Positions 9,310 through 32,000 are shown, counted from the first letter of the stretch. The stretch is DNA of 32,000 bases from Moraxella nasicaprae (GCF_025643275.1 NZ_CP089977.1:2070001-2102000), one strand, 5' to 3'. Notes: generated by a model from the sequence alone, not told the origin. Numbers and translations are program-made.

Positions 9310-9327
9310 CTCCAAAACCCCCTACAA

Positions 9328-9357: not shown

Positions 9358-9367
9358 GTAGGTCAAA

Positions 9368-9718: not shown

Positions 9719-9726
9719 GGGCGAGC

Positions 9727-12924: not shown

Positions 12925-13346
12925 GTTACCCGTGATAGCAACTCGCCCACCGCCACCAAACTTGCCACCGCCCGTAACATCGCCCTAACAGGAGCGGTAA
13001 CTGGCAATGTCAATTTTGATGGGTCGGGGAATGTGAGTTTGGCAACAACTGTGCAATCCGTGAGTGGCAAAGTGGTTGTTATGACTGGTACTATCGAACA
13101 TGGTGGCACCATTCCACTACCAGCAGGATTTAATGAAAATCAATGCAAGTGGATGGTTTCAATGAATGATGACAATCCAACTCGAACAACATGGGATATT
13201 AACGAAGGAGGGTATCATTTACATTATCGCCAAGAATGCTTTACGGAAGGTCGTGTGGTAACAGCTAGGACTTATCTAGGTGGACATTCTGGCTCATCAT
13301 CTGTTGTGAACAGTAAGGCTAACTACATCATCATTGGAGTGAAATA

Positions 13347-14373: not shown

Positions 14374-14398
14374 TTTTGTTCTTATTTAGGAGAAATCA

Positions 14399-14920: not shown

Positions 14921-14959
14921 GATGATTTAGATTAAACGATAAAAAAAGAAAAGACGGTC

Positions 14960-15046
14960 GGTATGACGGTGTGCGACCACCGCCATACCAGCCACGCAGT
15001 GTGAGTGCGTAAGCCCAAAGAACCGCCTGCTTAGCTAAGCGGTGTT
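14960..15046 (+). other. Cluster of three hairpins between the lysis genes and com (possible terminator/structured leader)
   Basis: H1: GGTATGACGGTG-6nt-CACCGCCATACC (11/12 bp, 14960-14989). H2: ACGCA-7nt-TGCGT (14994-15010). H3: ACCGC...GCGGT around the palindrome GCTTAGCTAAGC, followed by GTTATTTT (15022-15050). Confidence 0.4.
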
Positions 15047-15080
15047 ATTTTACCACAAAATCCATAGGATTACGCAAAAA

Positions 15081-15275
15081 ATGAAACAGCGTTGCACAAA
15101 TTGCAAAAAACTTTTAGCCATTGGCACGGGCAATTTTGCCATCAAATGCCCAAGATGCAAAACTTTAAATCAAATTAACACGCAAACCAAAGAATGCCAC
15201 GAGCATCATAACCCTTTAAATAAGGAAACCTATGAATGCTCAAAACAACCCCCAACCAACCCAATCCACCCCTAA
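15081..15275 (+). CDS. com: Com-like zinc-finger translational regulator
   Basis: MKQRCTNCKKLLAIGTGNFAIKCPRCKTLNQI has the CxxC...CxxC layout and wording of phage Mu Com (MKSIRCKNCNKLLF...IRCPRCK). Its 3' end overlaps the start of the downstream methylase gene, as com overlaps mom in Mu. Confidence 0.75.
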   Translation: MKQRCTNCKKLLAIGTGNFAIKCPRCKTLNQINTQTKECHEHHNPLNKETYECSKQPPTNPIHP

Positions 15276-16109
15276 CCCCAAACAATACCCAAAATCAAAA
15301 CCCAGTGTCGGCAGTCTCTTTGCTGGCATTGGCGGATTTGACTTGGGATTTGAAAACGCAGGTTTTTACACCAGCTGGCAAGTGGAAATTGACCCCATTT
15401 GCAAAGCGGTGTTATCAGACCGTTTCCCCCACGCCACCCAGTTTGACGATGTTAGAAACTGCTTGCCCAAAATCCAAGCCCTGCCAAATGGCGGAAGTGT
15501 CGATGTCATGTCTCCATGGCAGGCAAACGAGCAGGACTTCACGGACAGCGGACAGGCTTGTTCTTTGATGCTATCGGTATTATCCAAGCAATTAAGCCAA
15601 GATTTGTCGTGCTTGAAAATGTCACAGGTCTCATCAATTCCAACGATGGCAAAGACCTACAAACAGTCATTGAAACGCTTGCCCAATGCGGGTATGTGGG
15701 ATTTTGGCGAGTGCTGGACAGCCGTTATTTCGGAGTCCCCCAAAAACGCCGTAGAGTATTCTTGGTTGCAGGTCTTGGAGAATACCCACCATTTAGCCTT
15801 ATGGCTGACTTGGGGTCAGTGGAACGCATTTCTGGCAAGACTGAATCGCAATCGTGCTGGGCGGACGCACACCATACGCTACTGGCAGGGGTCGGCTCAT
15901 CCGCCATCAACATCAATTGTGCTGATATCATCGCTGTGCCAAATGGACGGCATCAGATGGCTGTCAGGGAGCGAACGACTGTCGATGATGGGCTTTGCAA
16001 AGGATTGGATGAGACCAACGCTTGTGAGGCTAGGACTGCGGGAAACGCCGTCTGTCCGCAAGTCGCACAGTTTATCGCAAGCCACTTGATGACGTCTTTT
16101 AACCCATAA
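15232..16109 (+). pseudogene. C5-cytosine DNA methyltransferase, disrupted (at least 3 frameshifts; catalytic PCQ motif lost)
   Basis: Motif I LFAGIGGFDLGF is in the frame of 15232. AGKRAGL, VVLENVTGL and VPQKRRRVFLVAG are in the frame of 15516. Motif IX-like SERLSMMGFAKDW (15970-16008) is back in the first frame. Motif X GNAVCPQVAQFIA (from 16041) is again in the second frame. Where GxPCQ is expected the sequence reads SPWQ (15511-15522). Confidence 0.8.
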
Positions 16110-16172
16110 TTGAACCAGCATTTCAACCATTTTGAGTGTCTTGAACGCCTTTAACTTTAAAAGGATAAGTTT

Positions 16173-17039
16173 ATGACACTCAATTCACTTTCTAACAAAC
16201 ATTACAAAACCGCCCCTTTGCCATTTACAGGGCAAAAGCGAATGTTTTTAAGGCACTTTGAAAAAATCTTAAAAGATAATGTCTCAAATGATGGAGAGGG
16301 CTTTACGGTGCTTGATGTCTTTGGCGGTTCTGGACTGCTTGCTCACAATGTCAAGCGTATCTTGCCCAAAGCCAACGTCATTTATAACGACTTTGACGGC
16401 TATGCTGAGCGTTTGGCTCATATTCCCACCACCAATCGCTTACGCCAAGAGCTGTTTGAAATCTTAAAAGACGAGCCAAGAAGTGCCAAATTATCAAACA
16501 CCACCAAAGCCAAAGCCCTAGACCATATCCGTAAAAGTGCCGACAACGGGACTTTTGTTGATGTGCAAACCTTGGCAGGTTGGTTGTTGTTTAGCGGACG
16601 ACAAGTGGGCAATCTTGATGAGTTTTTGGCAGAGTCCACCTTTTATAACCGTATTGTCAAAACTGACTACGACACCGCAGATGGCTATCTGGAAGGTCTT
16701 ATCATTGAATGCCTAGATTTTGAAAAGCTGTTACAAAAATACCAAGACACCCCAAATTGCTTGCTTCTGCTTGACCCGCCTTATGTTTGCACCGCACAGG
16801 GGGCGTATGCCAAGCACGGCTATTTTGGCATGACGAAGTTTTTACGGCTTATGCAGTTTGTGCGTCCACCCTTTATCTTTTTTAGCTCCACCAAAAGCGA
16901 GTTGATGGATTATATGGCTTATGTGGAGCAGTACGAGCCACCCACTTGGCAAAGGGTTGGGGGCTTTGAGCGGATTGTTGTCAATGCTCGCATTAACGCA
17001 CAAATTGGCTATGAAGACAATATTTTGGTTAAGTTTTAA
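16173..17039 (+). CDS. N6-adenine DNA methyltransferase (Dam/D12-class-like), orphan
   Basis: 288 aa. Has the SAM-binding motif LDVFGGSG and the catalytic DPPY (LLLDPPYV) in the alpha-group order. RBS AAGGA. No adjacent restriction endonuclease gene. Confidence 0.8.
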   Translation: MTLNSLSNKHYKTAPLPFTGQKRMFLRHFEKILKDNVSNDGEGFTVLDVFGGSGLLAHNVKRILPKANVIYNDFDGYAERLAHIPTTNRLRQELFEILKDEPRSAKLSNTTKAKALDHIRKSADNGTFVDVQTLAGWLLFSGRQVGNLDEFLAESTFYNRIVKTDYDTADGYLEGLIIECLDFEKLLQKYQDTPNCLLLLDPPYVCTAQGAYAKHGYFGMTKFLRLMQFVRPPFIFFSSTKSELMDYMAYVEQYEPPTWQRVGGFERIVVNARINAQIGYEDNILVKF

Positions 17040-17129
17040 AAAGTGAAAATTCATTACAAAAAGACTGGACTACGCTCTATGAGTACGGCAGTATGTGCCT
17101 TATAAATTAACAAGTTAAAGGTAAATGTA

Positions 17130-17576
17130 ATGTTAGACATTCAAACGGTTTCAAGTTTTGTCCAAGAGTATGGTGTGGTAGATTTTGACTGCGAGATGGA
17201 CGATGGCGTACTTTGGTTTCGGGGTGTCAATTGTTATTTGATTATTGGCAAAGTTACTGACAAGCAGGTGTTTTTGACGGTTTGGGAAGATGATGAGTGC
17301 AATGAAGTCATTGAAAACTTTGAAATCCAGAACCTTGATGAATTGAATGTTTGCTTAAAGAAATACGCCTTGATTGCTCAGGTAAGCACCAAGCAAGATG
17401 AAACCATCCAAAAACCAACCGACACCACGATGATTGATATCTACTTTAAGCTCATTAAAGACAAATTGGCAGAACATCAAATCAACCTTGATTTTGAAAA
17501 ACAAAGCCAAGCCGAAAAGCTGGTCATTCGCCACATTGAGGATAAACTGGTGGAGGTTATCAAATTTTTGCAATAA
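17130..17576 (+). CDS. Acidic hypothetical protein, last gene before the phage end
   Basis: 148 aa with RBS AAAGG. A clean terminator follows. No recognisable family. Confidence 0.5.
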   Translation: MLDIQTVSSFVQEYGVVDFDCEMDDGVLWFRGVNCYLIIGKVTDKQVFLTVWEDDECNEVIENFEIQNLDELNVCLKKYALIAQVSTKQDETIQKPTDTTMIDIYFKLIKDKLAEHQINLDFEKQSQAEKLVIRHIEDKLVEVIKFLQ

Positions 17577-17596
17577 CCAAGTAAGATAAAAAAGTA

Positions 17597-17626
17597 AATG
17601 CCCCAAGTAAGATTGGGGCATTTTTT
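17597..17626 (+). terminator. Rho-independent terminator of the last phage gene
   Basis: AATGCCCCA-8nt-TGGGGCATT followed by TTTT. Confidence 0.75.
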
Positions 17627-17649
17627 ATGGGGTAATTGTAAAAATGAAA

Positions 17650-20600
17650 TTATCTTGCACATAGTGCAACAAAACCAAAAAGATATTTATTGCATAAATA
17701 GGCGAGATTTTTCGCGGCGGGCATCATCATCTCCAATCTTCCTGTATTTATTAGGGCTGCCAATCTATTTGCTTCTTCCTGATTGGCTTTTGGTGCATTT
17801 GCTCTAATTTTATTATAATAAGCCCCATTCCATCTCACCACCTCCTCAGCCATCTGCACTGCCATATTCACATCTTCTTCTGCTAGGGCTGCTACTGTCC
17901 CTGCGATGAGTTTGGCTTGGTTGATGATACTTTGTCTTTGAGAGTCTGTTAGGGTAGTGGGGTCATCTATTTGCCAATCTGCCCAGATTTCTGCCATACT
18001 AGCACCTAAGGCACCTGCTTGGCAAGTTGATCCTTGTGCTTTGGCAGATAGACAGCCTGTGAGTCCTGCGGCAAGTTTGTGGGCGATGTTGTTAATGTTG
18101 CCATCTGTATCAATGGGTTTAACCAAATGAGCAAAGGCTTGTTGATGTGATAGGGCAATCAGTTGATTACCAAGATTGGTTTTTAGGTTGTCTTCTAAGT
18201 CTGTGCCATAGATGGCAGATTGTAGTAGGCTTTTTGAAGTACTTTGGGCAATGCCTTTGATGAATCTGTCATTAAGACTTAACTGGGTTTGGTCAATGCC
18301 TTGTATGTTTAGTCCTTTATCAATCTTATTGCTGATACCAGCACTGGCGATGGCAAAGGCAAGCTGTTTGGCATTGTCTTTATTGCCAAGCTGCTTGATG
18401 GCGGCTTTGATGTTGCCTTGATTATTGATTAGGCTGATGGTGGCTTGTTCGGCAAGGGTGCTAAGAGCGGTATTTGCCATCGCTGTCAGGGTATGACTGC
18501 CCAATAAAGTACCGTTAATCGGTGCAATACCGCCTGTTGCCATTCCCATGGCAATGGTTAAGATGGCAGCCCCTGCTGGAGTAAGACCTGCTTGCTGGTA
18601 GTTCCATTCTTTTTGAGTGAGAATAAGGGTCTGCCAGTCGATGTTGTTTTGCTGGATGAGCGAATTTAGATAGCTGTATTCGGGCTGTTTGGCAAGTTCA
18701 AGGATTTGTTCCTTGATGACTTTTCTTTGGACATCTTTTTCGCTGATAGGGATTTGTACCACAAGACCGCCATCGGCAACAAAACTAGGCGGTGTACTAC
18801 CTGTAAAGCTGGGTAAAACAGCTGTTTGAGTATATTGTCCTTTATCTTGCATTCGTTGCCAAAAGACTTCATTGGCTTGTGAGGTGGTGCTTATATTGAG
18901 AGTGCTAATCGCTGGAAGTAGATGAACTTTGCCGCCTGCTTCAATATTTGCACCAGACAGATAGCTAAATATACTGCCTTGTAGGGTGGTGTCGCCAAGA
19001 GATTTGGTATTGATATAACGAGCGGTCAAAGAGGCGGGCAGGGCAGTAATTTGCAATTTGTGATGATTGGTTGTTGCATTGCCTGCTTTAACGCCCAAGA
19101 TGCGTCTTTTGACCTGAGTATCTTGATGATGCTCATGCACATCATTGACGCTAAATAGATTGATTGCACCTGTAGCAAAGACACTGATATTGCCTGTCGT
19201 ACTCATTTTGGTGGCATAAAAGTCAGCATTACTTTGATGACCTTGAGCGGTTAATGAGATATGATGGGCAGCCAAAGAAGTCGGTAGGGCGGTGGAATAC
19301 TCATCTTGGGTTTGAACATTGATGGTTTTGCGATTGAGTGCACTGCCTTTTTTGCTGCTACTTTCATCGTAGCGATGGGTATAATTGATGGCATGGTCAA
19401 CGAGTAAATGATGATTAGCAGCGATGGTTAGGTTAGACTTAGCATCAATGTTGCCAGCTTGTACAACCAAATGGACTGGCTGCCCTGCTTGATTGGTCTT
19501 GGTGGCAGATAGGCTGACATTACTGGCTGTGATTTGACTTGGCACAAACAAAGCATGGTTGCGATAATAAGAGGAGTTTTCCTTGCCCATTTCATAGATG
19601 TTGTGTGAGCCATCGACTAGGATGCTGGCGGTGATGTTTTGGTCGTTTTTGTGGTATTTGTCAGTTAATGTACCCTGTGCTTGCAAAGTGATGTTATTGG
19701 CAGCGGTCAAGTTCGATGAACGGATTAGAATGCCTTGAGCAGCATTCATGCTGATATTGTTTTGTGCTGTCAGGGTGGAGGGCTGATATTCTGTACCGAT
19801 TGGATTTCTTTTCAAGTCAGCCAGTTGGTCAGTCAATCTTGATACATCAGCTTGCAAAGCCTCCTCTTTTGATTTGGCAGGCAAATGCTTAGATAATACC
19901 GATTCTAATTCGTTGATTTTGGCGTTGGTTTGGTTAATTAGTCGGTCATAGTCAGCCACAGTCTTTGGATCTGCCGGCGAAGTGGGTGATGCTGAACGAA
20001 ATCTAATCCCTGATGGTGGGGGAGGCGGTGGGGGAGGTAAGAGAGTGTCGCCAAGCGATCTGCTGTTTTCTGGTAGAGATGGCGTGGCAGGATTGCTTAA
20101 TGCCTGTCTTTGACTATGATGCAAAGCTAGCTGAAATTGCAGAGAATTAATCTGAGTCTGCAATTGTCGATAAGACTGATATGCGTCAGATTTTTGAAAG
20201 ATTGCTAATGCTTGCTTGGCTTGTTTGAGCTGTTTTTCTATATTGTCAATCGTATGTATGGGCAATGCTTGACCATCTAGGCGATTGCTTAGAGCATCAA
20301 CCAGAACGGAGCCCTTCCCAGCATTTAGATGGATATTTTTACCTGTAATATTTGCCCCTTGTAAAACAATCTCTTGTGCGGATATGGTCAAATTTCCTTT
20401 TGGAGTAAGTTGTGCTAATTGACCTGAGCCAATACCCTTAGTGCCTTCATGACCGATTAAATCAATGTTGCCATTTTGGGACTGTAGCCATAAATCTCCA
20501 TCAGCAGATAATTGATGTGTCTGAGGTCGAATGTGCAATGCTTGCTCGCTAATAATAGATAAGTCGCCACTTAGTGTCGTAGTTTGCGGATTTTTGGTTA

Positions 20601-22197
20601 ACAGCTGTGTTTTGGTTGCATTAGCAAATAATTGACCCTGCGGCTTGATGGACAGCTTTTTGGTTTTTAATAAAATTGCACCAGCCGTCAGATTGGTCGA
20701 TCCTGTAATCGTATGCAAACCAAGTGAAACGCTACTTAAGATACCCTTAGCACTTAAATTACCACCTATATTTTGATCGCCTGTGGTATAAAGCGTTAAA
20801 TGATGATCGGCATTGGCAGTCGTGTTTTGCCAAACTAGGTCTTTTCTAGACTCAATAGAGATGTTTTTGTGTGCAGTTAAATTACTGTTAGTCAGCGTTT
20901 GATTTTGGTGTGTGTAGAGATTGATTGATCCATCTGCATTTAACTGGTTGTCAGTCATTTGTGCACTGCCAGCTAATGATGCTACAGTGATGTTGCCTGT
21001 TGTACGAATACTACTTTTACCGATAGATAGAGCGTCTTTGGTAACTAACTGGACATTGCTGGCAGTCATATTGGACTGCTGTACGCTGAGCGTCTTGGCT
21101 TTGGTTTCAATGTTGCTGGCAGTTAAATTTGTTTGATGTAGATTAAGGGTGTTGTTTGTTGTTAAAAGGATGTCTCTCCCTCCTGTCACATTGCCTGCCA
21201 AAGTTTGATTGTTAGCATTTAGGTGGATATTGCCTTGTTTGGTGCTCATCACCCCTTGTGCCGACTGGTAAATATCTGTTTGGCTACTTAGTAGGATTTG
21301 ATGATCTGCATGTATATTGCCTGTGTTTTTGATGTATCCATCACTACTGACATAGACTTGCTGAGCGGCGTTTAAGCTACCAGCATTATTGACACCAACG
21401 CCCTGATCGGTAACAATCAAACGAATATTGCCAGCATACATACCGCCAAGCTGACCTGTATCAATAGCAATGGTGGCAGCGGAAGATTTATTTGATGATG
21501 CTTGAACAGGAGTGGAAAGTCCATTGGTAATAATATTAGAGCCTGCAACAACATTAATACTATCATTGGCATGGATTTTGCCATTTAATTCCACTGCTTT
21601 AGCATATAGATTAAGATAATTGGCTTGATGCCTATCGGACATACCTGTTTGACCGATATTAATTTTACCAGCATTGATTTGATGGCTAATGTTGCCCTGC
21701 AAATGACTAACCGTGCCAGTTGTTAATGTTGCCTCATTTGTGTTAATAAACCCAGCACCAGAAACTACAATTCCTGACGGGTTGGCAATGATAACATTGG
21801 CTGTTTGTCCAGCAACCTCAATAATACCAGCAATATTGGTGGCTTTACTACTGTTAATTTCATTGATGATGGTATGGGCAGAACCTTGTTGTAAAAAAGG
21901 ATTACCCTCAATCTGATTGGCAAGCTGTGTCTGTGTACTACCACGAGCATTGTTTAGCACGACACCTATGTCATTAACATTGAACCTTTCGTATTGATTA
22001 TGAGATATGCCATTAACAGGTGTGCGAATCTGTACCACAGGAACAGCTTGTCCATTAGTATGAGTTCCTGCAAGAATAATGGGTTTTTTATTAGAATCTG
22101 CTTTTGGATCGCTGATAACTTGGGCAATGCTTGATGTTGAAATTGATAAAAGAATGGCAGAAATGGCAATATTCAAAGATGATTTTGAAAATAGCAT
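17650..22197 (-). CDS. cdiA: CdiA/TpsA filamentous-haemagglutinin-type exoprotein, copy 1; alternative C-terminal tip truncated by, and reading into, the prophage end
   Basis: 1,515 aa. Signal peptide plus TPS domain (NQYERFNV, QIEGNPFL, NPSGIVVSGAGFINT). Long FHA-type repeats. DUF637-like pretoxin segment (AGLTPAGAAILTIAMGMATGG). VRWN motif at aa 1454-1457, then only 58 further codons. The last ~24 codons lie within the putative phage end. Confidence 0.85.
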   Translation of the reverse strand: MLFSKSSLNIAISAILLSISTSSIAQVISDPKADSNKKPIILAGTHTNGQAVPVVQIRTPVNGISHNQYERFNVNDIGVVLNNARGSTQTQLANQIEGNPFLQQGSAHTIINEINSSKATNIAGIIEVAGQTANVIIANPSGIVVSGAGFINTNEATLTTGTVSHLQGNISHQINAGKINIGQTGMSDRHQANYLNLYAKAVELNGKIHANDSINVVAGSNIITNGLSTPVQASSNKSSAATIAIDTGQLGGMYAGNIRLIVTDQGVGVNNAGSLNAAQQVYVSSDGYIKNTGNIHADHQILLSSQTDIYQSAQGVMSTKQGNIHLNANNQTLAGNVTGGRDILLTTNNTLNLHQTNLTASNIETKAKTLSVQQSNMTASNVQLVTKDALSIGKSSIRTTGNITVASLAGSAQMTDNQLNADGSINLYTHQNQTLTNSNLTAHKNISIESRKDLVWQNTTANADHHLTLYTTGDQNIGGNLSAKGILSSVSLGLHTITGSTNLTAGAILLKTKKLSIKPQGQLFANATKTQLLTKNPQTTTLSGDLSIISEQALHIRPQTHQLSADGDLWLQSQNGNIDLIGHEGTKGIGSGQLAQLTPKGNLTISAQEIVLQGANITGKNIHLNAGKGSVLVDALSNRLDGQALPIHTIDNIEKQLKQAKQALAIFQKSDAYQSYRQLQTQINSLQFQLALHHSQRQALSNPATPSLPENSRSLGDTLLPPPPPPPPSGIRFRSASPTSPADPKTVADYDRLINQTNAKINELESVLSKHLPAKSKEEALQADVSRLTDQLADLKRNPIGTEYQPSTLTAQNNISMNAAQGILIRSSNLTAANNITLQAQGTLTDKYHKNDQNITASILVDGSHNIYEMGKENSSYYRNHALFVPSQITASNVSLSATKTNQAGQPVHLVVQAGNIDAKSNLTIAANHHLLVDHAINYTHRYDESSSKKGSALNRKTINVQTQDEYSTALPTSLAAHHISLTAQGHQSNADFYATKMSTTGNISVFATGAINLFSVNDVHEHHQDTQVKRRILGVKAGNATTNHHKLQITALPASLTARYINTKSLGDTTLQGSIFSYLSGANIEAGGKVHLLPAISTLNISTTSQANEVFWQRMQDKGQYTQTAVLPSFTGSTPPSFVADGGLVVQIPISEKDVQRKVIKEQILELAKQPEYSYLNSLIQQNNIDWQTLILTQKEWNYQQAGLTPAGAAILTIAMGMATGGIAPINGTLLGSHTLTAMANTALSTLAEQATISLINNQGNIKAAIKQLGNKDNAKQLAFAIASAGISNKIDKGLNIQGIDQTQLSLNDRFIKGIAQSTSKSLLQSAIYGTDLEDNLKTNLGNQLIALSHQQAFAHLVKPIDTDGNINNIAHKLAAGLTGCLSAKAQGSTCQAGALGASMAEIWADWQIDDPTTLTDSQRQSIINQAKLIAGTVAALAEEDVNMAVQMAEEVVRWNGAYYNKIRANAPKANQEEANRLAALINTGRLEMMMPAAKNLAYLCNKYLFGFVALCAR
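17677..17726 (+). mobile_element. Putative Mu-type right end (transposase-binding region, terminal ...CA)
   Basis: Read outside-in, the region gives TGATGCCCGCCGCGAAAAATCTCGCCTATTTATGCAATAAAT. My recollection of Mu attR is TGAAGCGGCGCACGAAAAACGCGAAAGCGTTTCACGATAAAT. TGA, CGAAAAA and ATAAAT fall at the same offsets. The exact terminus is ambiguous (CA at 17723, 17726 or 17729). Confidence 0.5.
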
Positions 22198-22339
22198 TTT
22201 AACTTCCTTGTAAAATTGTCAGCTCCTTCTTAGATTTAGTGAAAGTTTAGCAAATACCAAAAAATAGTTCAAGTCGGAATTGGTATGATTTTTGAGGAAA
22301 TTTAATCACGGGTTGGTGTGTATGAATACCTTATTTAAC
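17837..22339. repeat. 4,503-bp direct repeat, copy 1 (cdiA promoter plus codons 1-1453)
   Basis: Identical to 25632-30134 wherever compared. All six-frame sub-ORFs recur at a +7,795 offset with identical translations. Confidence 0.9.
22244..22272 (-). promoter_or_regulatory. Sigma-70-like promoter of cdiA copy 1
   Basis: The - strand reads TTGAAC-17 nt-TAAACT. It is followed by RBS AGGAAG 6 nt before the ATG. Confidence 0.5.
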
Positions 22340-22812: not shown

Positions 22813-22844
22813 AATAAAAAACCACCATCGAAAAGATGGTGGTT
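22813..22844 (-). terminator. Rho-independent terminator of the cdiA-immunity operon
   Basis: The - strand reads AACCACCATC-TTTTC-GATGGTGGTT followed by TTTTTATT, about 50 nt after the stop at 22894. Confidence 0.75.
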
Positions 22845-22893: not shown

Positions 22894-23772
22894 CTATAAC
22901 TTACTAGCCCAAGGACCAAAATCAAACCTAGAATAATCCTCTCCAACTTGTGAAAATACATGTAAGAAATATTCATCTAGCATCTCTTGTGGGTTATTGA
23001 TTTCATAAATTCCATTAATAAAGTCGCCATCTTTTACCCAAAACATACGATGGTCATAATAGTAACACATGAGTATTAAATCATATTCTTTTGGGTCTTC
23101 ATCAGGCTTACAGCAATCTATCATAACCCTTAGATTGGGAAAACCATCTGTACGATATTTTTCTTGTTTTTCAATACCTTCAATTTCAATATCAATAAAA
23201 GCATAGGGAATTTTTTTAACCAAACTTTCAATTGCTTGCTTGGCTTTTTTGCGTGAGTTGGGTAAGTAAATATCAAATGGTTTCCAACAGCTATATGGGT
23301 CTCCGATTAGCATGGTTCCCCCTTGAATATACCTAACACTATCAGATAGTAACACGCCACCAAATGCCTTTAACCAACCATCTTTTAAATAGTTTGGTAG
23401 CCAATGGTAATAATCTTCACTAGGGTCAGTTAAAAAATAAATTCTTTGGTTTAACTCAAAAAATGTTGATAAAGATAAATTTAACTCAATTAATTCATAC
23501 CAATAAACTGTTAATTGGCAATTTAATTGGAAATCATTTAAATATTGATAGGTTTTTGGATAATGGGCTTGTAATGATAATATGGATTTGTGAATATCCA
23601 ATCCTAACTGTCTGATTTGTTCATCATAAATCCACTTATAATCACTGTTATTGATATAATCCATTTCTTTGTGCTTCATATCAGAGACAAAATCTGCAAC
23701 ATACTCAACAATTTTATTTGACATATTTTGCTCAAGTTTGTCTTTTGTATAGATAGGCATAGTTTTCTCCAT
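22894..23772 (-). CDS. Second immunity-like protein, paralogue of the 23796-24656 product
   Basis: 292 aa, acidic and Tyr/Asp-rich, with no signal peptide. Shares PKTYQ(L/Y)L and a C-terminal NNPQE.(I/L)D.Y..H(I/V)FS...D..F.P block with the upstream gene. Very AT-rich. Confidence 0.6.
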   Translation of the reverse strand: MEKTMPIYTKDKLEQNMSNKIVEYVADFVSDMKHKEMDYINNSDYKWIYDEQIRQLGLDIHKSILSLQAHYPKTYQYLNDFQLNCQLTVYWYELIELNLSLSTFFELNQRIYFLTDPSEDYYHWLPNYLKDGWLKAFGGVLLSDSVRYIQGGTMLIGDPYSCWKPFDIYLPNSRKKAKQAIESLVKKIPYAFIDIEIEGIEKQEKYRTDGFPNLRVMIDCCKPDEDPKEYDLILMCYYYDHRMFWVKDGDFINGIYEINNPQEMLDEYFLHVFSQVGEDYSRFDFGPWASKL

Positions 23773-23795: not shown

Positions 23796-24656
23796 CTAAA
23801 AATCCACCATATATGGAGTAAAATCAAAGTCGCCATCTTGACCCGAAAAAATATGGGCTGCGTAACTATCAATGGCTTCTTGTGGATTATTCAATCTTTT
23901 TATGCTAAATACATCAGCATTTTGGATAATATAGATATTTTCTCCCTGATCAATAGATGAGCAAAATAATTGGAAACCAGTGTTGCTATAGTCGTCCATA
24001 GTTCGTGTATCTAATAGATTTCTTAACTCAAAATAATCATTTCTATTATCCCCTGTATACTGATCGTCATCATAATCTCTCACGATGCGATGATTAAACT
24101 TAGCATCTAAAAAATCACAATATTTATCTCTATTTTGTCTAGTTTCAAAATTATCTATAATAGAGTGAATTGGACTTTGTAAAGTTGTTGGCAGACGGCT
24201 TTTAAAAGGACTAGTAACTGTGTCTTCTGCAATATGCCACGCATCTGTGTGGAGTATCCAAGAGCGAAGAACAAAAACTGGTAAATTTTTGTAAAAAATA
24301 CTATCAGGATCTTGTTCGTAGCAAGGAATTGATGGATATGATAAATAAAAACATTGATGATTAACAATTATACCAAATTGAGTAATATCTCCCATAATTT
24401 CTGGATAAGGTGATTTTTCTACAGCATAGAAGAACTCTGCTTTTAAAAGCAGCTGATAGGTTTTGGGTTGAAGGCTTTCAAAGGGTTGGACTAAATATTC
24501 CTTTAAATCGCCTTTTGAAATAAAATGGTAGCCATCATATTTTCTTTCATTGCATTTTAAACTTAGTTCCATAAATGGAATATCATCAAAATCATTTTGA
24601 TAAAAGACTTTATCACAACTTTCCTCTAACTGAGTTTTAGTCAAAAATAGTTTCAT
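23796..24656 (-). CDS. cdiI: Putative CdiI immunity protein for the HINT-HNH toxin tip
   Basis: 286 aa. The ATG overlaps the cdiA stop (ATGA), the usual cdiA-cdiI coupling. Cytoplasmic, acidic, AT-rich. Family not recognised. Confidence 0.6.
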   Translation of the reverse strand: MKLFLTKTQLEESCDKVFYQNDFDDIPFMELSLKCNERKYDGYHFISKGDLKEYLVQPFESLQPKTYQLLLKAEFFYAVEKSPYPEIMGDITQFGIIVNHQCFYLSYPSIPCYEQDPDSIFYKNLPVFVLRSWILHTDAWHIAEDTVTSPFKSRLPTTLQSPIHSIIDNFETRQNRDKYCDFLDAKFNHRIVRDYDDDQYTGDNRNDYFELRNLLDTRTMDDYSNTGFQLFCSSIDQGENIYIIQNADVFSIKRLNNPQEAIDSYAAHIFSGQDGDFDFTPYMVDF

Positions 24657-27600
24657 GATTTTTTTCTCCGCTTAAATAATTCTTGATGAACTTTTTCGGT
24701 TGCATCTTTGAGTATCTGCTGCTGTTGCCTTAACAAATATGCTCTATATTTAGGAGATATTTCTTTATTCCCCTTAACATATTTAACCCATCCATCAGTA
24801 CCTGTTTCAATCTTAGAACCCTTAGAAGAGTTAAGATGTTTAGGTAGTGGCTGTAAATTAGAAGGATTATTTATGAGCTTTTCTTGTACATCTTTTGGCA
24901 AATCATTAAAGCCTGGAATTTTTTTAAATTCCGCTCTGGGGAGAATATGATCAAAAGATGCTACAGCGTCATCGGGAAAGAATTTTTTGGTATTTGTAAA
25001 AGGATCCAAATACATTACCTTGCCAGTTTTAGCATCTACCCAATCACCTTTGATTAAAATCTCGGCAGCATTACCATATTTGTTGCCAAAATCACAACAA
25101 TTCGCATTATGCACCCACACACCCAATCTGCCCACATGATAGGTGTGAAAGTCATCCACTTCGATATTATAGACAGTGTCGGTGTGGTTGGGTAGTAGGT
25201 ATTGGCTTATAACTTCTACTTCTTGATTGTTTCTATCAAGTAGTATCATGCCTTGTTCTAGTAAAGACGCTTTTAGCCAGCCTGTATCTTTAATCCAAAA
25301 TGGGTGTTCAGCTGTGGTTTCTAAGGTTTCAATTTGACCTTGATGGTTTTTGACCGTTACTTGGAAAATGGGTTGGTCAGGTGTTGCTTTGGTGGCAATG
25401 ACAGGACGATAGCCGTATTCTAGGGTAATGTCATTTCTTGTCCAAATCAGTTCACCACCTGTGAAGGTTTCGATGGTTTTCAAGCCTTCTGATGTTTCAA
25501 TCAGGGTTCCTGCGGTAAAGCAAACGGTGCCTTTCTTGCACAGTTTAGAGATGCTATTGATAATAGCGGCACTAGCACCAGCACCAAAACCACCACCCAA
25601 TCTATTTAAACTGGTGGTTGCATTCCACCTAACCACCTCCTCAGCCATCTGCACTGCCATATTCACATCTTCTTCTGCTAGGGCTGCTACTGTCCCTGCG
25701 ATGAGTTTGGCTTGGTTGATGATACTTTGTCTTTGAGAGTCTGTTAGGGTAGTGGGGTCATCTATTTGCCAATCTGCCCAGATTTCTGCCATACTAGCAC
25801 CTAAGGCACCTGCTTGGCAAGTTGATCCTTGTGCTTTGGCAGATAGACAGCCTGTGAGTCCTGCGGCAAGTTTGTGGGCGATGTTGTTAATGTTGCCATC
25901 TGTATCAATGGGTTTAACCAAATGAGCAAAGGCTTGTTGATGTGATAGGGCAATCAGTTGATTACCAAGATTGGTTTTTAGGTTGTCTTCTAAGTCTGTG
26001 CCATAGATGGCAGATTGTAGTAGGCTTTTTGAAGTACTTTGGGCAATGCCTTTGATGAATCTGTCATTAAGACTTAACTGGGTTTGGTCAATGCCTTGTA
26101 TGTTTAGTCCTTTATCAATCTTATTGCTGATACCAGCACTGGCGATGGCAAAGGCAAGCTGTTTGGCATTGTCTTTATTGCCAAGCTGCTTGATGGCGGC
26201 TTTGATGTTGCCTTGATTATTGATTAGGCTGATGGTGGCTTGTTCGGCAAGGGTGCTAAGAGCGGTATTTGCCATCGCTGTCAGGGTATGACTGCCCAAT
26301 AAAGTACCGTTAATCGGTGCAATACCGCCTGTTGCCATTCCCATGGCAATGGTTAAGATGGCAGCCCCTGCTGGAGTAAGACCTGCTTGCTGGTAGTTCC
26401 ATTCTTTTTGAGTGAGAATAAGGGTCTGCCAGTCGATGTTGTTTTGCTGGATGAGCGAATTTAGATAGCTGTATTCGGGCTGTTTGGCAAGTTCAAGGAT
26501 TTGTTCCTTGATGACTTTTCTTTGGACATCTTTTTCGCTGATAGGGATTTGTACCACAAGACCGCCATCGGCAACAAAACTAGGCGGTGTACTACCTGTA
26601 AAGCTGGGTAAAACAGCTGTTTGAGTATATTGTCCTTTATCTTGCATTCGTTGCCAAAAGACTTCATTGGCTTGTGAGGTGGTGCTTATATTGAGAGTGC
26701 TAATCGCTGGAAGTAGATGAACTTTGCCGCCTGCTTCAATATTTGCACCAGACAGATAGCTAAATATACTGCCTTGTAGGGTGGTGTCGCCAAGAGATTT
26801 GGTATTGATATAACGAGCGGTCAAAGAGGCGGGCAGGGCAGTAATTTGCAATTTGTGATGATTGGTTGTTGCATTGCCTGCTTTAACGCCCAAGATGCGT
26901 CTTTTGACCTGAGTATCTTGATGATGCTCATGCACATCATTGACGCTAAATAGATTGATTGCACCTGTAGCAAAGACACTGATATTGCCTGTCGTACTCA
27001 TTTTGGTGGCATAAAAGTCAGCATTACTTTGATGACCTTGAGCGGTTAATGAGATATGATGGGCAGCCAAAGAAGTCGGTAGGGCGGTGGAATACTCATC
27101 TTGGGTTTGAACATTGATGGTTTTGCGATTGAGTGCACTGCCTTTTTTGCTGCTACTTTCATCGTAGCGATGGGTATAATTGATGGCATGGTCAACGAGT
27201 AAATGATGATTAGCAGCGATGGTTAGGTTAGACTTAGCATCAATGTTGCCAGCTTGTACAACCAAATGGACTGGCTGCCCTGCTTGATTGGTCTTGGTGG
27301 CAGATAGGCTGACATTACTGGCTGTGATTTGACTTGGCACAAACAAAGCATGGTTGCGATAATAAGAGGAGTTTTCCTTGCCCATTTCATAGATGTTGTG
27401 TGAGCCATCGACTAGGATGCTGGCGGTGATGTTTTGGTCGTTTTTGTGGTATTTGTCAGTTAATGTACCCTGTGCTTGCAAAGTGATGTTATTGGCAGCG
27501 GTCAAGTTCGATGAACGGATTAGAATGCCTTGAGCAGCATTCATGCTGATATTGTTTTGTGCTGTCAGGGTGGAGGGCTGATATTCTGTACCGATTGGAT

Positions 27601-29992
27601 TTCTTTTCAAGTCAGCCAGTTGGTCAGTCAATCTTGATACATCAGCTTGCAAAGCCTCCTCTTTTGATTTGGCAGGCAAATGCTTAGATAATACCGATTC
27701 TAATTCGTTGATTTTGGCGTTGGTTTGGTTAATTAGTCGGTCATAGTCAGCCACAGTCTTTGGATCTGCCGGCGAAGTGGGTGATGCTGAACGAAATCTA
27801 ATCCCTGATGGTGGGGGAGGCGGTGGGGGAGGTAAGAGAGTGTCGCCAAGCGATCTGCTGTTTTCTGGTAGAGATGGCGTGGCAGGATTGCTTAATGCCT
27901 GTCTTTGACTATGATGCAAAGCTAGCTGAAATTGCAGAGAATTAATCTGAGTCTGCAATTGTCGATAAGACTGATATGCGTCAGATTTTTGAAAGATTGC
28001 TAATGCTTGCTTGGCTTGTTTGAGCTGTTTTTCTATATTGTCAATCGTATGTATGGGCAATGCTTGACCATCTAGGCGATTGCTTAGAGCATCAACCAGA
28101 ACGGAGCCCTTCCCAGCATTTAGATGGATATTTTTACCTGTAATATTTGCCCCTTGTAAAACAATCTCTTGTGCGGATATGGTCAAATTTCCTTTTGGAG
28201 TAAGTTGTGCTAATTGACCTGAGCCAATACCCTTAGTGCCTTCATGACCGATTAAATCAATGTTGCCATTTTGGGACTGTAGCCATAAATCTCCATCAGC
28301 AGATAATTGATGTGTCTGAGGTCGAATGTGCAATGCTTGCTCGCTAATAATAGATAAGTCGCCACTTAGTGTCGTAGTTTGCGGATTTTTGGTTAACAGC
28401 TGTGTTTTGGTTGCATTAGCAAATAATTGACCCTGCGGCTTGATGGACAGCTTTTTGGTTTTTAATAAAATTGCACCAGCCGTCAGATTGGTCGATCCTG
28501 TAATCGTATGCAAACCAAGTGAAACGCTACTTAAGATACCCTTAGCACTTAAATTACCACCTATATTTTGATCGCCTGTGGTATAAAGCGTTAAATGATG
28601 ATCGGCATTGGCAGTCGTGTTTTGCCAAACTAGGTCTTTTCTAGACTCAATAGAGATGTTTTTGTGTGCAGTTAAATTACTGTTAGTCAGCGTTTGATTT
28701 TGGTGTGTGTAGAGATTGATTGATCCATCTGCATTTAACTGGTTGTCAGTCATTTGTGCACTGCCAGCTAATGATGCTACAGTGATGTTGCCTGTTGTAC
28801 GAATACTACTTTTACCGATAGATAGAGCGTCTTTGGTAACTAACTGGACATTGCTGGCAGTCATATTGGACTGCTGTACGCTGAGCGTCTTGGCTTTGGT
28901 TTCAATGTTGCTGGCAGTTAAATTTGTTTGATGTAGATTAAGGGTGTTGTTTGTTGTTAAAAGGATGTCTCTCCCTCCTGTCACATTGCCTGCCAAAGTT
29001 TGATTGTTAGCATTTAGGTGGATATTGCCTTGTTTGGTGCTCATCACCCCTTGTGCCGACTGGTAAATATCTGTTTGGCTACTTAGTAGGATTTGATGAT
29101 CTGCATGTATATTGCCTGTGTTTTTGATGTATCCATCACTACTGACATAGACTTGCTGAGCGGCGTTTAAGCTACCAGCATTATTGACACCAACGCCCTG
29201 ATCGGTAACAATCAAACGAATATTGCCAGCATACATACCGCCAAGCTGACCTGTATCAATAGCAATGGTGGCAGCGGAAGATTTATTTGATGATGCTTGA
29301 ACAGGAGTGGAAAGTCCATTGGTAATAATATTAGAGCCTGCAACAACATTAATACTATCATTGGCATGGATTTTGCCATTTAATTCCACTGCTTTAGCAT
29401 ATAGATTAAGATAATTGGCTTGATGCCTATCGGACATACCTGTTTGACCGATATTAATTTTACCAGCATTGATTTGATGGCTAATGTTGCCCTGCAAATG
29501 ACTAACCGTGCCAGTTGTTAATGTTGCCTCATTTGTGTTAATAAACCCAGCACCAGAAACTACAATTCCTGACGGGTTGGCAATGATAACATTGGCTGTT
29601 TGTCCAGCAACCTCAATAATACCAGCAATATTGGTGGCTTTACTACTGTTAATTTCATTGATGATGGTATGGGCAGAACCTTGTTGTAAAAAAGGATTAC
29701 CCTCAATCTGATTGGCAAGCTGTGTCTGTGTACTACCACGAGCATTGTTTAGCACGACACCTATGTCATTAACATTGAACCTTTCGTATTGATTATGAGA
29801 TATGCCATTAACAGGTGTGCGAATCTGTACCACAGGAACAGCTTGTCCATTAGTATGAGTTCCTGCAAGAATAATGGGTTTTTTATTAGAATCTGCTTTT
29901 GGATCGCTGATAACTTGGGCAATGCTTGATGTTGAAATTGATAAAAGAATGGCAGAAATGGCAATATTCAAAGATGATTTTGAAAATAGCAT
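24653..29992 (-). CDS. cdiA: CdiA/TpsA exoprotein, copy 2, full length with a VRWN - linker - HINT - HNH-like nuclease C-terminus
   Basis: 1,779 aa. Residues 1-1457 are identical to copy 1. The C-terminal 322 aa are unique. Confidence 0.9.
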   Translation of the reverse strand: MLFSKSSLNIAISAILLSISTSSIAQVISDPKADSNKKPIILAGTHTNGQAVPVVQIRTPVNGISHNQYERFNVNDIGVVLNNARGSTQTQLANQIEGNPFLQQGSAHTIINEINSSKATNIAGIIEVAGQTANVIIANPSGIVVSGAGFINTNEATLTTGTVSHLQGNISHQINAGKINIGQTGMSDRHQANYLNLYAKAVELNGKIHANDSINVVAGSNIITNGLSTPVQASSNKSSAATIAIDTGQLGGMYAGNIRLIVTDQGVGVNNAGSLNAAQQVYVSSDGYIKNTGNIHADHQILLSSQTDIYQSAQGVMSTKQGNIHLNANNQTLAGNVTGGRDILLTTNNTLNLHQTNLTASNIETKAKTLSVQQSNMTASNVQLVTKDALSIGKSSIRTTGNITVASLAGSAQMTDNQLNADGSINLYTHQNQTLTNSNLTAHKNISIESRKDLVWQNTTANADHHLTLYTTGDQNIGGNLSAKGILSSVSLGLHTITGSTNLTAGAILLKTKKLSIKPQGQLFANATKTQLLTKNPQTTTLSGDLSIISEQALHIRPQTHQLSADGDLWLQSQNGNIDLIGHEGTKGIGSGQLAQLTPKGNLTISAQEIVLQGANITGKNIHLNAGKGSVLVDALSNRLDGQALPIHTIDNIEKQLKQAKQALAIFQKSDAYQSYRQLQTQINSLQFQLALHHSQRQALSNPATPSLPENSRSLGDTLLPPPPPPPPSGIRFRSASPTSPADPKTVADYDRLINQTNAKINELESVLSKHLPAKSKEEALQADVSRLTDQLADLKRNPIGTEYQPSTLTAQNNISMNAAQGILIRSSNLTAANNITLQAQGTLTDKYHKNDQNITASILVDGSHNIYEMGKENSSYYRNHALFVPSQITASNVSLSATKTNQAGQPVHLVVQAGNIDAKSNLTIAANHHLLVDHAINYTHRYDESSSKKGSALNRKTINVQTQDEYSTALPTSLAAHHISLTAQGHQSNADFYATKMSTTGNISVFATGAINLFSVNDVHEHHQDTQVKRRILGVKAGNATTNHHKLQITALPASLTARYINTKSLGDTTLQGSIFSYLSGANIEAGGKVHLLPAISTLNISTTSQANEVFWQRMQDKGQYTQTAVLPSFTGSTPPSFVADGGLVVQIPISEKDVQRKVIKEQILELAKQPEYSYLNSLIQQNNIDWQTLILTQKEWNYQQAGLTPAGAAILTIAMGMATGGIAPINGTLLGSHTLTAMANTALSTLAEQATISLINNQGNIKAAIKQLGNKDNAKQLAFAIASAGISNKIDKGLNIQGIDQTQLSLNDRFIKGIAQSTSKSLLQSAIYGTDLEDNLKTNLGNQLIALSHQQAFAHLVKPIDTDGNINNIAHKLAAGLTGCLSAKAQGSTCQAGALGASMAEIWADWQIDDPTTLTDSQRQSIINQAKLIAGTVAALAEEDVNMAVQMAEEVVRWNATTSLNRLGGGFGAGASAAIINSISKLCKKGTVCFTAGTLIETSEGLKTIETFTGGELIWTRNDITLEYGYRPVIATKATPDQPIFQVTVKNHQGQIETLETTAEHPFWIKDTGWLKASLLEQGMILLDRNNQEVEVISQYLLPNHTDTVYNIEVDDFHTYHVGRLGVWVHNANCCDFGNKYGNAAEILIKGDWVDAKTGKVMYLDPFTNTKKFFPDDAVASFDHILPRAEFKKIPGFNDLPKDVQEKLINNPSNLQPLPKHLNSSKGSKIETGTDGWVKYVKGNKEISPKYRAYLLRQQQQILKDATEKVHQELFKRRKKS
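24656..25105 (-). other. C-terminal toxin domain of cdiA copy 2: HNH/EndoVII-fold nuclease-like (D-H...N...N..K pattern)
   Basis: SFDHILPRAEF...PSNLQPLPKHLNSSKGSK compares with the generic HNH pattern hHHIiP....NL..L....N/H. It possibly belongs to the DHNNK class of polymorphic-toxin nucleases (from memory). Confidence 0.55.
25106..25522 (-). other. HINT (intein-like, pretoxin PT-HINT) domain within cdiA copy 2 (aa 1491-1629)
   Basis: Starts with CFTAGTLIETSEG and ends with VYNIEVDDFHTYHVGRLGVWVHN, i.e. the Hint N-terminal Cys and C-terminal HN blocks. The +1 residue is Ala. Confidence 0.8.
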
Positions 29993-30134
29993 TTTAACTT
30001 CCTTGTAAAATTGTCAGCTCCTTCTTAGATTTAGTGAAAGTTTAGCAAATACCAAAAAATAGTTCAAGTCGGAATTGGTATGATTTTTGAGGAAATTTAA
30101 TCACGGGTTGGTGTGTATGAATACCTTATTTAAC
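25632..30134. repeat. 4,503-bp direct repeat, copy 2
   Basis: See 17837-22339. The repeat ends 142 bp upstream of the ATG (...CCTTATTTAAC) and at the V codon of VRWN. Confidence 0.9.
30039..30067 (-). promoter_or_regulatory. Sigma-70-like promoter of cdiA copy 2 (duplicate of 22244-22272)
   Basis: Same TTGAAC-17-TAAACT on the - strand. Confidence 0.5.
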
Positions 30135-30604
30135 ATAATATACATTATGCGAAGTGTAAGCAATCGACTTAGGGGATTGATGAATGCTTGATACGCACAC
30201 TTTAAACGATGTGTTTGGCATGATTACTCATCAAGTTGCTCGTTGTGATTGCTTGGGTTTGAAGCTAATGACGGCACTCATCAAGACCAACTGATGGCGA
30301 TTTGGTTTTGGTGCTAGTCATGCTTGGTCAATGTGCATTCATCAAATGTGTTAAATATACCTCATCAAATCATCAAAATAATGCCAAAAAATCAATCAAT
30401 TTGGGCGAAAACCCCACCTGTATTTATGTTAATTATCTTCACAAAATCAGTACCACATAGTCGATAATCGGTCTTGTGAATATCGCTATATTCATCTATA
30501 ATAGCTTGTTATTTGTGCAAAAATTTTGGCAAAATACTTGATTTTACGAAGAATTTGATGCCAAATCGATGTTTTTAATACACCAAACATGATAGGAGTT
30601 TTTT

Positions 30605-30940
30605 ATGTTGGACTTGCTGATTAACACCGCTCACGCCACACAAGGTGCGGCTGGCGAACAGTCGCTATTCATGAATCTGTTGATTCCTGTGGCATTTTTT
30701 GCAATTTTTTATTTTCTCATCATTCGCCCACAATCAAAACGCAATAAGCAACATAAAGCGATGGTTGATGGCTTGTCAGCTGGCAATGAAGTGGTATTTG
30801 CAGGTGGTTTGATTGGTAAAATCAAACGCATTGAAGGCGATTATGCGGTCGTAACGCTCAACAATGGCGGTACAGAAGTTAAGGTTCAGCGTGCCAGCGT
30901 TTTGATGGTATTGCCAGCAGGCACTGTTGATAATATCTAA
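30605..30940 (+). CDS. yajC: Preprotein translocase subunit YajC
   Basis: 111 aa. LLIPVAFFAIFYFLIIRPQSKRNKQHKAMVDGLSAGNEVVFAGGLIGKI is collinear with E. coli YajC. secD follows. Confidence 0.9.
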   Translation: MLDLLINTAHATQGAAGEQSLFMNLLIPVAFFAIFYFLIIRPQSKRNKQHKAMVDGLSAGNEVVFAGGLIGKIKRIEGDYAVVTLNNGGTEVKVQRASVLMVLPAGTVDNI

Positions 30941-31048
30941 TTTTATGCTTGCCCAAACAGCTTTTTTGCAAAGATTTTTTTGCAAAATTGACCGTTTGGG
31001 TTGTTTTATTTCTAAGCCAATCGGCTTATCAATCAAATAAGAATATCT

Positions 31049-32000
31049 ATGCATTATCCCGCTTGGAAATATGTGCTGATTGCTCTTGTGTTGTTCATCG
31101 CAGGCATTTATGCACTACCAAATCTCTATCCTGATGAACCTGCGGTACAAATCACGGGTGCTAGTGCAGGTACACAGCTGACTGAGGAGGTCTTAACTCA
31201 GGCTCAATCAGCATTAAGCGAGGCAGGACTTGACCATCATGATGGTAGTTTTGCCAATAATAGTGCCTTAGTCCGCTTAAATAATTCCGAAGACCAGCTA
31301 AAAGCCCAAGAAGTTCTACGCCGTAAATTGGGCGAAAACTATGTGGTTGCTCTCAACCTTGCCCAAACCACGCCAGAATGGCTGACCAAAATCGGTGCAA
31401 AACCAATGAAACTGGGTCTAGACTTGCGTGGCGGTGTGCGTTTTGTGCTTGAAGTGGACATGGACAAGGCATTGGAACAACGCCTAAGCACTGCCAGCCA
31501 AGATGTTCGCCGAGCTTTGCGTGCTGAGCAGATTCCTGTGCAGTCAATGCGTACCACCAAACAAGGCTTGATGCTGACCTTTGGCAGCAATGAGCAACGC
31601 AATCAGGCTCAAACTGTTCTACAAAAAAACATGGGTCTTGATTTTGCTTTGCGTCCGCTCATGGATACACAAGGCCCTGCCCTTGAAATGGTATATACCG
31701 AAGCCAAACTTGCTGAGATTAACGAATATGCCGTCAGCCAAAACTTGACCACCTTGCGTAATCGTATCAATGAGCTTGGTGTGGCAGAGGCATTGGTTCA
31801 ATCACAAGGTTCAAACCGCATCGTGGTTGAGTTACCTGGCGTCCAAGACACCGCCGAAGCTAAGCGTGTGCTTGGTCGTACTGCCAACCTAGAATTTCGT
31901 ATGGTGAGCGAAGAAGCTGCCAATTATACAGGCGGCATTCCACCTGCTGGTACGGAGGCTTTCCCGTTTGGTACCACAGACGGCCCTGCGGTTTTGCTTG
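31049..32000 (+). CDS. secD: Protein translocase subunit SecD (5' part; runs off the window)
   Basis: ATG at 31049. MHYPAWKYVLIALVLFIAGIYALPNLYPDEPAVQITG matches the SecD N-terminus. The frame is open to 32000, so it is absent from the ORF track. Confidence 0.9.
   Translation, partial: MHYPAWKYVLIALVLFIAGIYALPNLYPDEPAVQITGASAGTQLTEEVLTQAQSALSEAGLDHHDGSFANNSALVRLNNSEDQLKAQEVLRRKLGENYVVALNLAQTTPEWLTKIGAKPMKLGLDLRGGVRFVLEVDMDKALEQRLSTASQDVRRALRAEQIPVQSMRTTKQGLMLTFGSNEQRNQAQTVLQKNMGLDFALRPLMDTQGPALEMVYTEAKLAEINEYAVSQNLTTLRNRINELGVAEALVQSQGSNRIVVELPGVQDTAEAKRVLGRTANLEFRMVSEEAANYTGGIPPAGTEAFPFGTTDGPAVLL

Follow-up and report, generated by a model that had tools for sequence, protein, structure and literature searches.

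A Moraxella nasicaprae CdiA effector module predicted to combine HINT self-cleavage, a nuclease tip and an overlapping cognate immunity gene

How the C-terminal toxin region (CT) of CdiA is cut from its filament in the target cell is still a poorly characterised step of contact-dependent growth inhibition (CDI) (2022 CDI review), and HINT-bearing CdiAs are the one class in which the protein itself could do the cutting. A locus of Moraxella nasicaprae (GCF_025643275.1, NZ_CP089977.1:2070001-2102000) raises the question of whether it encodes such a protein. Within this stretch of 32,000 nucleotides, all of which was analysed and which we call the window, the open reading frame (ORF) 24653..29992 on the minus strand encodes a TpsA/CdiA-like protein of 1779 amino acids, and an original prediction made from the DNA alone had read its last 322 residues as a linker, a HINT autoprotease and an HNH-like nuclease. 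Our reading, which we hold with a probability of roughly 0.75, is that the locus is the C-terminal effector module of a short 'type-I'-like two-partner secretion (TPS) CdiA of the Moraxellaceae type, with HINT self-cleavage, a nuclease tip and an overlapping cognate immunity gene.

The cdiA/tpsA-like gene encodes, in order, a signal peptide, a TPS domain, a central region that includes the run PPPPPPPP, DUF637, PT-VENN with the motif VRWN, a linker, PT-HINT and the nuclease tip. Pfam searches placed the TPS secretion domain at residues 25-290 (E = 1.7e-40), DUF637 at 1240-1399 (E = 6.8e-21) and PT-VENN (PF04829) at 1414-1455 (E = 2.6e-6, 27.9 bits against a cut-off of 20.3). The pretoxin module as a whole spans residues 1414-1457 (25622..25753, minus strand) and carries VRWN (residues 1454-1457) in place of VENN. 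The constant body of CdiA ends at this motif, directly after which a second cdiA copy in the window diverges. A TPS domain, a pretoxin module and a variable C-terminal toxin, the combination by which polymorphic-toxin and CDI proteins are recognised, were all found here, and a separate database protein of 2598 residues has an equal order (ESPR-TPS-FHA-PT-VENN-PT-HINT-GmrSD_C). Base 25621 opens codon 1458, the next after VRWN, and the stop codon occupies bases 24653-24655, so the interval 24653-25621 given for the last 322 residues was correct; that it is read on the minus strand had been left unsaid. Translation and numbering also bore out the division into linker (1458-1490), HINT (1491-1629) and tip (1630-1779). 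The linker of 33 residues (ATTSLNRLGGGFGAGASAAIINSISKLCKKGTV; 25523..25621, minus strand) is Gly/Ala-rich as described, with 11 of 33 positions Gly or Ala and these clustered in GGGFGAGASAA, and it holds Cys1485, six residues before the first HINT cysteine.

The HINT domain is strongly supported. It comprises the 139 residues 1491-1629 (25106..25522, minus strand) and was assigned to PT-HINT, or bacterial intein-like (BIL) domains of type A, by Pfam, AlphaFold, Foldseek and an alignment (A3) of 28 trimmed homologues with the 322-residue tail. The Pfam match (PF07591) covers residues 1497-1630 and 137 of 137 profile positions with E = 8e-25 to 9e-26, at 88.2-91.2 bits against a cut-off of 27.7, which as a profile result is far beyond chance. 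Cys1491 lies in CFTAGT (block A), T1560 and H1563 form the TxxH motif (block B), and the domain ends in VWVHN with H1628-N1629 (block G); these catalytic motifs (Cys1, TxxH and HN) are kept across alignment A3. When A3 was used as input for AlphaFold2, the 322-residue model had a mean predicted local distance difference test (pLDDT) score of 84.5, with HINT mostly at 82-98 by blocks of 10 residues. Low confidence was confined to the first 11 residues and to residues 177-180, just past the HINT C-terminus; over the linker the score was low to moderate, with a helix predicted at residues 14-28 of the model. The best Protein Data Bank (PDB) match of the HINT model found by Foldseek was 2LWY, the solution structure of a C. 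thermocellum BIL (E = 4.5e-15, template modelling (TM) score 0.91, root-mean-square deviation 1.9 A, 36% identity), followed by a Tetrahymena BIL2 domain and more than 40 intein structures, with dozens of mini-inteins. Both checks proposed with the original prediction, a Pfam search and a structure prediction, were significant for HINT.

As judged from the alignment, every catalytic position of a type A BIL is present, and the residue at +1 is Ala1630. Position +1 holds Ala in most of about 120 relatives and Asp, Thr, Ser or Gly in the others, and Cys occurs only at +2 to +4. Type A BILs have a His-Asn end and no +1 nucleophile and show mainly N- and C-terminal cleavage with little splicing (PMC4031507; PMC7664689). 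The earlier expectation of cleavage rather than splicing is consistent with this published behaviour and with Ala at +1, and by analogy is what the textbook would predict for the class. We considered and rejected a true intein, that is, a mobile element in a host protein, given the Ala at +1, the lack of a homing endonuclease and the pretoxin position.

The toxin tip, residues 1630-1779 (150 amino acids; 24656..25105, minus strand), was assigned by alignment, Pfam and a PDB profile search to the Tox-DHNNK / DUF1524 (GmrSD_C)-type His-Me finger domains. Its core runs from D1681-H1682 to K1724 (24821-24952, minus strand) and leads into a long C-terminal helix whose end, FKRRKKS, is basic; the motifs in it are DHILP (1681-1685), NLQPLP (1712-1717) and HLNSSKGSK (1719-1727). 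When 1.84 billion representative proteins were searched exhaustively with phmmer, 209 relatives came up at E <= 1e-3. In all listed relatives, which range from 77 to 6828 residues, the match ends no more than about 20 residues from the C-terminus, two repetitive proteins excepted, and such a C-terminal placement is the signature of a polymorphic-toxin domain. An alignment of 23 sequences (30-56% identity) left D51, H52, N82, P85, N91, S93, K94 and Q127 of the tip invariant (D1681, H1682, N1712, P1715, N1721, S1723, K1724 and Q1757 in the full protein), in agreement with the definition of Tox-DHNNK as an HNH/EndoVII fold with DH, N, N, N and K (PMC3482391).

Profile searches with these 23 members pointed the same way. 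GmrSD_C/DUF1524 (PF07510), a family that forms group 3 of the His-Me finger superfamily (PMC5714182), was matched by 15 of the 23 at E <= 0.01, at best 1.1e-6; P0147, with 23.6 bits, passes the cut-off of 23. No other Pfam family recurred, a single HNH_4 match excepted. BrxU, a type IV restriction enzyme of the GmrSD family, was the best PDB sequence for the family profile (E = 0.0018), in an alignment that spans VDHIyP...NLQ...N..K and pairs its DHIYP with DHILP of the tip. BrxU has its HNH nuclease site at this DHIYP (D474, H475), and GmrSD and BrxU cut DNA (PMC8565348). An NCBIfam search of the CT returned nothing useful. We consider the assignment of the tip as an HNH-like nuclease well supported by sequence.

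The cdiI ORF (286 amino acids; 23796..24656, minus strand) begins with an ATG that overlaps the cdiA TGA (ATGA). In 10 of 12 loci from other genera, retrieved with a seven-sequence tip alignment as query, a cdiI homologue lies directly downstream of the tip relative; a genome scan with the window tip as lone query gave nothing. The pair occurs in Pelistega europaea, P. suis, Haemophilus parainfluenzae, Stenoxybacter acetivorans and several metagenome-assembled genomes, with cdiI identities of 40-47% in most loci and 25-27% in Stenoxybacter, and it recurs in a contig of Moraxella sp. Since the pairing is conserved across three bacterial families, the 286-residue ORF is, on comparative grounds, the predicted cognate immunity gene. 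Its family comprises about 10 clusters in 5.8 billion proteins, has no match in Pfam, NCBIfam or the PDB, profile searches of Pfam and PDB included, and is not recognisably SUKH, SuFu or Imm33.

A second member of this immunity family, of 292 residues and without a toxin of its own, follows at 22894..23772 (minus strand). It aligns with the 286-residue protein over the full length at 21% identity, with shared W, P and D residues and a C-terminal FDF motif, and BLASTP gave E = 1e-6 over the C-terminal 57 residues; in Stenoxybacter the downstream ORFs match both proteins. With no toxin to go with it, the 292-residue ORF probably serves the operon as an additional or orphan immunity gene. A pattern scan found a terminator-like hairpin at 22820..22844 (minus strand; 10-pair stem with 5 G-C pairs, and a T-run), which closes the cdiA-cdiI-orf292 unit, and the operon order is cdiA, cdiI and the putative extra immunity gene.

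From these parts a mechanism can be proposed. As in other members of the family, CdiA on the surface of the producer would pass its C-terminal region into a neighbour on contact. HINT would then cut itself out: Cys1491 would attack the preceding peptide bond in an N-to-S acyl shift, hydrolysis of the thioester would free HINT-toxin from the CdiA body, and cyclisation of Asn1629 would break the bond to Ala1630 and free the toxin, steps that would be expected from the intact catalytic residues and published BIL biochemistry. Because +1 is Ala, no branched intermediate would form and cleavage would dominate. The freed tip would degrade nucleic acid, most probably DNA to judge from the motif alignment to GmrSD/BrxU, with His1682 as general base, Asn1721 (with Asp1681) binding metal and Asn1712 bracing the hairpin. 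Sibling cells would be protected by the 286-residue protein, whose gene is observed to pair with the toxin gene and whose binding to the toxin we presume.

Several points weigh against this reading. Self-cleavage, DNase activity and immunity are all inferred by us. No TpsB/CdiB transporter gene (POTRA or ShlB-type) was found in the 32-kb window, so secretion is presumed, and HINT is not followed by a distinct cytoplasm-entry domain, such as E. coli CdiA-CTs have, that could take the tip across the inner membrane of the target. The window tip itself scored 20.1 bits on GmrSD_C (residues 1672-1725, E = 6e-4), under the cut-off of 23. A model of the tip alone was confident overall (AlphaFold; pLDDT 87.2, predicted TM score 0.79), with DH at a strand end and N1712 ahead of the next strand; the stretch expected to form the metal-binding helix (tip residues ~91-110) had pLDDT of 62-66. 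Foldseek with this model gave no significant match (best E = 0.56 in the PDB and 0.056 in BFVD). His-Me nucleases top both of these non-significant lists at E = 0.06-0.8: in the PDB they are Vvn and BrxU, in BFVD they are HNHc, Endonuclease I and HNH homing endonucleases. As to fold, a beta-beta-alpha-metal core is suggested at most; the HNH-like nuclease claim draws its support from the sequence profiles (the DHNNK invariants, GmrSD_C in 15 of 23 members, BrxU).

Could the locus be a decaying or silent CDI remnant, its gene intact and its product not exported, with the transporter missing or split off by prophage and duplication? The surroundings give this idea some substance. The second cdiA copy (1515 residues; 17650..22197, minus strand) matches the first through VRWN, the two proteins being 100% identical over residues 1-1457 and unrelated beyond, and then has a 58-residue tail (GAYYNKIRANAPKANQEEANRL...; 17650-17825, minus strand) with no recognisable toxin and no immunity gene; NCBIfam searches with this tail and with the immunity genes gave nothing useful. 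It may be a truncated or toxin-less variant. The copies belong to a 4.5-kb direct repeat (17826-22339 and 25621-30134) that consists of the cdiA bodies and 142 nt of upstream leader and differs at two sites only, 17833 and 17836, beside the VRWN junction. This points to a recent duplication or gene conversion, possibly to an assembly effect; an artefact of assembly is conceivable for the duplicate, but each copy has flanks and a well-formed 3' end of its own.

A bidirectional terminator hairpin (17596-17623) lies 27 nt past the end of the second cdiA and also closes the last ORF on the phage side. Beyond it, a P2/Mu-like myophage late region (1-17576, plus strand) adjoins the cdi locus, with genes for Gp37, sheath, tube, tail chaperone, tape measure, GpU, GpD, spike, gp25, baseplate J and I, fibre-like ORFs and an M15 peptidase; past the late genes lie those for a C5-cytosine and an N6-adenine DNA methylase. 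A blastn search of 14000-18200 against phages for the prophage end gave only patchy methylase matches. Phage-tail remnants also lie beside the tip/immunity pair in the Moraxella sp. contig (L013). Upstream of cdiA (29993-32000) about 600 bp of AT-rich non-coding DNA precede a yajC-like gene (30605-30940, plus strand) and a secD-like gene (from ~31054, plus strand).

A remnant would accord with the lack of a TpsB/CdiB gene in the window, with yajC/secD-like genes upstream and a myophage tail module downstream, and with the short tail and missing immunity gene of the second cdiA. Against it, both 4.4-kb cdiA bodies are intact and identical, and the operon shows a codon overlap between cdiA and cdiI and ends in a terminator. 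Moreover, M. catarrhalis has two near-identical TpsA proteins served by one transporter, MhaC (PMC3699455), a case that makes a transporter gene outside the window plausible here. We regard the remnant as unlikely, if somewhat less so than the alternatives that follow.

A second alternative concerns what HINT is for. VENN in E. coli CdiA is a handle for cassette swapping, and HINT might be kept mainly as such a recombination handle for toxin/immunity cassettes, its proteolysis dispensable or vestigial in delivery. About 120 homologues of the 322-residue tail were found, mostly in Moraxella, Psychrobacter and Acinetobacter, with HINT domains 50-95% identical to that of the window and followed by tails as varied as ribonuclease, Endonuclease_NS_2, EndoU, colicin-E3-like and Ntox47 domains, among others: one near-identical HINT, many unrelated tails. 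G+C content falls from 0.43 in the cdiA body and 0.42 in HINT to 0.34 in the tip, 0.32 in cdiI and 0.31 in the 292-residue ORF, and with this drop at the HINT/tip border the imported, horizontally acquired cassette seems to have its start where HINT ends on the C-terminal side, rather than at VRWN. Together with the divergence of the cdiA copies at VRWN, this border implies two nested swap points.

Several short proteins from other genomes and metagenomes, likely orphan cassettes, have their start within HINT and continue through to the tip. The tip/immunity pair of Haemophilus parainfluenzae (L005, 7842-9295) has a tip ORF that starts in HINT, as an orphan cassette would, and whose stop overlaps the immunity start by 4 nt; Pelistega suis has the same pair (L002, 4275-7156). 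The presence of the pair in Pasteurellaceae and Alcaligenaceae indicates that the module has been exchanged between families. The orphan cassettes of Neisseria class 1 MafB likewise begin inside an A-type BIL (PMC4287609). On the sequence evidence, HINT is also a constant 'handle' for swapping in toxin/immunity cassettes. That this is its main role we find improbable, since Cys1, TxxH, His-Asn and the flanking cysteines are kept even at ~28% identity, which argues for selection on chemistry and not on DNA homology alone, and BILs of this type cleave in vitro (PMC4031507). The roles of handle and protease are, besides, compatible.

It is about equally improbable that the tip is not a DNase, being instead an RNase or a nucleic-acid binder with a degenerate His-Me site. 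The score of the window tip under the Pfam cut-off and the non-significant structural matches leave room for this, and some His-Me toxins act on RNA (PMC5714182). Yet the catalytic DH and both Asn are invariant in 23 diverse relatives, a dedicated immunity gene is kept beside the tip, implying toxic activity, and the nearest characterised relatives, GmrSD and BrxU, cut DNA. Least credible is that HINT splices, joining the CdiA body to the tip or handing the body to another nucleophile in the manner of Hedgehog and cholesterol: type A BILs can splice at low yield via aminolysis (PMC4031507) and a conserved Cys lies close to the junction, at +3, but +1 is Ala here and mostly Ala family-wide, published BILs mainly cleave unless +1 is changed to Cys (PMC4031507; PMC7664689), and the toxin would stay on a 1490-residue filament.

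The cysteines that flank HINT are the one feature of the module that is less well described. At the C-terminal junction, A1630-N1631-C1632-C1633 (25094..25105, minus strand), Ala at +1 is followed by a conserved Cys-Cys at +3/+4. The junction WVHN/A[ND]CC, the slash standing for the domain border, is near-constant in the ~120 HINT modules, and unrelated tails begin past CC. Both junctions could be retrieved for 63 HINT modules, in which we counted cysteines; 49 combine a Cys 4-6 residues ahead of Cys1 with a Cys pair at +3/+4 (or +2/+3), and those without the upstream Cys mostly have one Cys, at +3, a co-occurrence that may be plain inheritance among related sequences. In the window protein the set consists of C1485 (-6; 25538-25540, minus strand), C1491 and C1632/C1633 (+3/+4). 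Tentatively, and at odds no better than those we give the remnant, these residues might form a redox device in which disulfides, formed under the oxidising conditions of the periplasm or at the cell surface, lock Cys1 or staple the flanks, so that cleavage, or the release of a toxin already nicked, would occur only in the reducing cytoplasm of the target. Interchain disulfides in AB toxins and the redox traps of some inteins are analogues of such a gate. If it existed, it would time toxin release without a host protease.

The proposal of self-cleavage has a history. The layout of PT-VENN, HINT and nuclease and the release of a CdiA toxin by self-cleavage have been put forward before (Amitai 2003; Zhang 2011/2012; Mercy 2016; De Gregorio 2019). 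The suggestion in the original prediction that HINT adds a self-cleavage step to TPS/CdiA delivery fits this layout and is not new, as Zhang 2011, Mercy 2016 and the 2022 CDI review, which repeats the idea for BIL-CdiA, make clear. A close precedent is the class I CdiA of Pseudomonas (P. syringae PSPTO_3229 and others), defined by Mercy 2016, with citation of Amitai et al., by a BIL domain with the WVHN motif. These proteins share with ours TPS, DUF637 and an A-type BIL that ends in WVHN right before a variable toxin, and the P. syringae BIL domain was reported to be active, with self-cleavage proposed as the means of toxin release (Mercy 2016; Amitai 2003). Unlike them, the window protein has PT-VENN (VRWN) before HINT and with it two nested junctions, comes from a Moraxellaceae host and carries other toxin and immunity families. 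Mercy's suggestion of BIL-CdiA as a trait of Pseudomonas phytopathogens alone fails on the sequences retrieved, in which HINT-bearing CdiA is common outside them.

The pro-toxins of Zhang, Iyer and Aravind (2011, 2012) follow the same rule, by which HINT separates a pretoxin domain (PT-VENN, for example) from the nuclease at the C-terminus, and for Tox-DHNNK HINT is named as the associated protease (PMC3482391). The 2012 table for Tox-DHNNK gives type II, VI and VII secretion systems (T2SS, T6SS, T7SS) and PVC and not the type V system (T5SS), with SUKH, SuFu or Imm33 as immunity (PMC3482391), whereas the carrier in the window is T5SS/TPS and the immunity protein belongs to the unannotated 286-residue family. 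Type-I CdiA of Acinetobacter (De Gregorio 2019) is alike in TPS, a heterogeneous centre, DUF637, PT-VENN and CT and in the lack of long FHA repeat arrays; it measures ~2000 residues, one example, bau-C3, bears a CT of the PT-HINT kind, and the study also notes a homologue in Moraxella catarrhalis. The window protein differs in being shorter (1779 residues) and in its VRWN motif and its tip and immunity families. By analogy, its Gln/Leu/Lys-rich central region (residues ~640-800), which had no FHA-repeat match in Pfam, may be the counterpart of the coiled-coil 'HET' region of the Acinetobacter proteins. An eight-proline run lies within this region at residues 721-728 in both CdiA copies (27809-27832, minus strand, in the first).

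Two further systems resemble parts of the module. GmrSD/BrxU (DUF1524) shares DHI[YL]P ... NLQ ... N..K, BrxU being the best PDB sequence and among the top, non-significant fold matches, whereas the tip lacks the DUF262 NTPase partner and is a stand-alone toxin domain with an immunity protein; the likeness is limited to ~70 active-site residues. Neisseria class 1 MafB is alike in placing a BIL between a constant region and a polymorphic toxin, and differs in a MafA-dependent route and a DUF1020 N-terminus in place of a TPS filament. The original prediction is a correct reading of a known architecture, of which the locus is an ordinary new example. It goes beyond the record in small points, the occurrence of Tox-DHNNK with T5SS and an immunity family that is absent from the databases.

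These results leave the current picture of CDI toxin release unchanged. The locus adds to it an intact Moraxellaceae case in which a VENN-type and a HINT junction occur together with a compact DHNNK/DUF1524-type tip and an unannotated immunity family, and it offers a convenient construct with which to test self-cleavage and the part played by the flanking cysteines.

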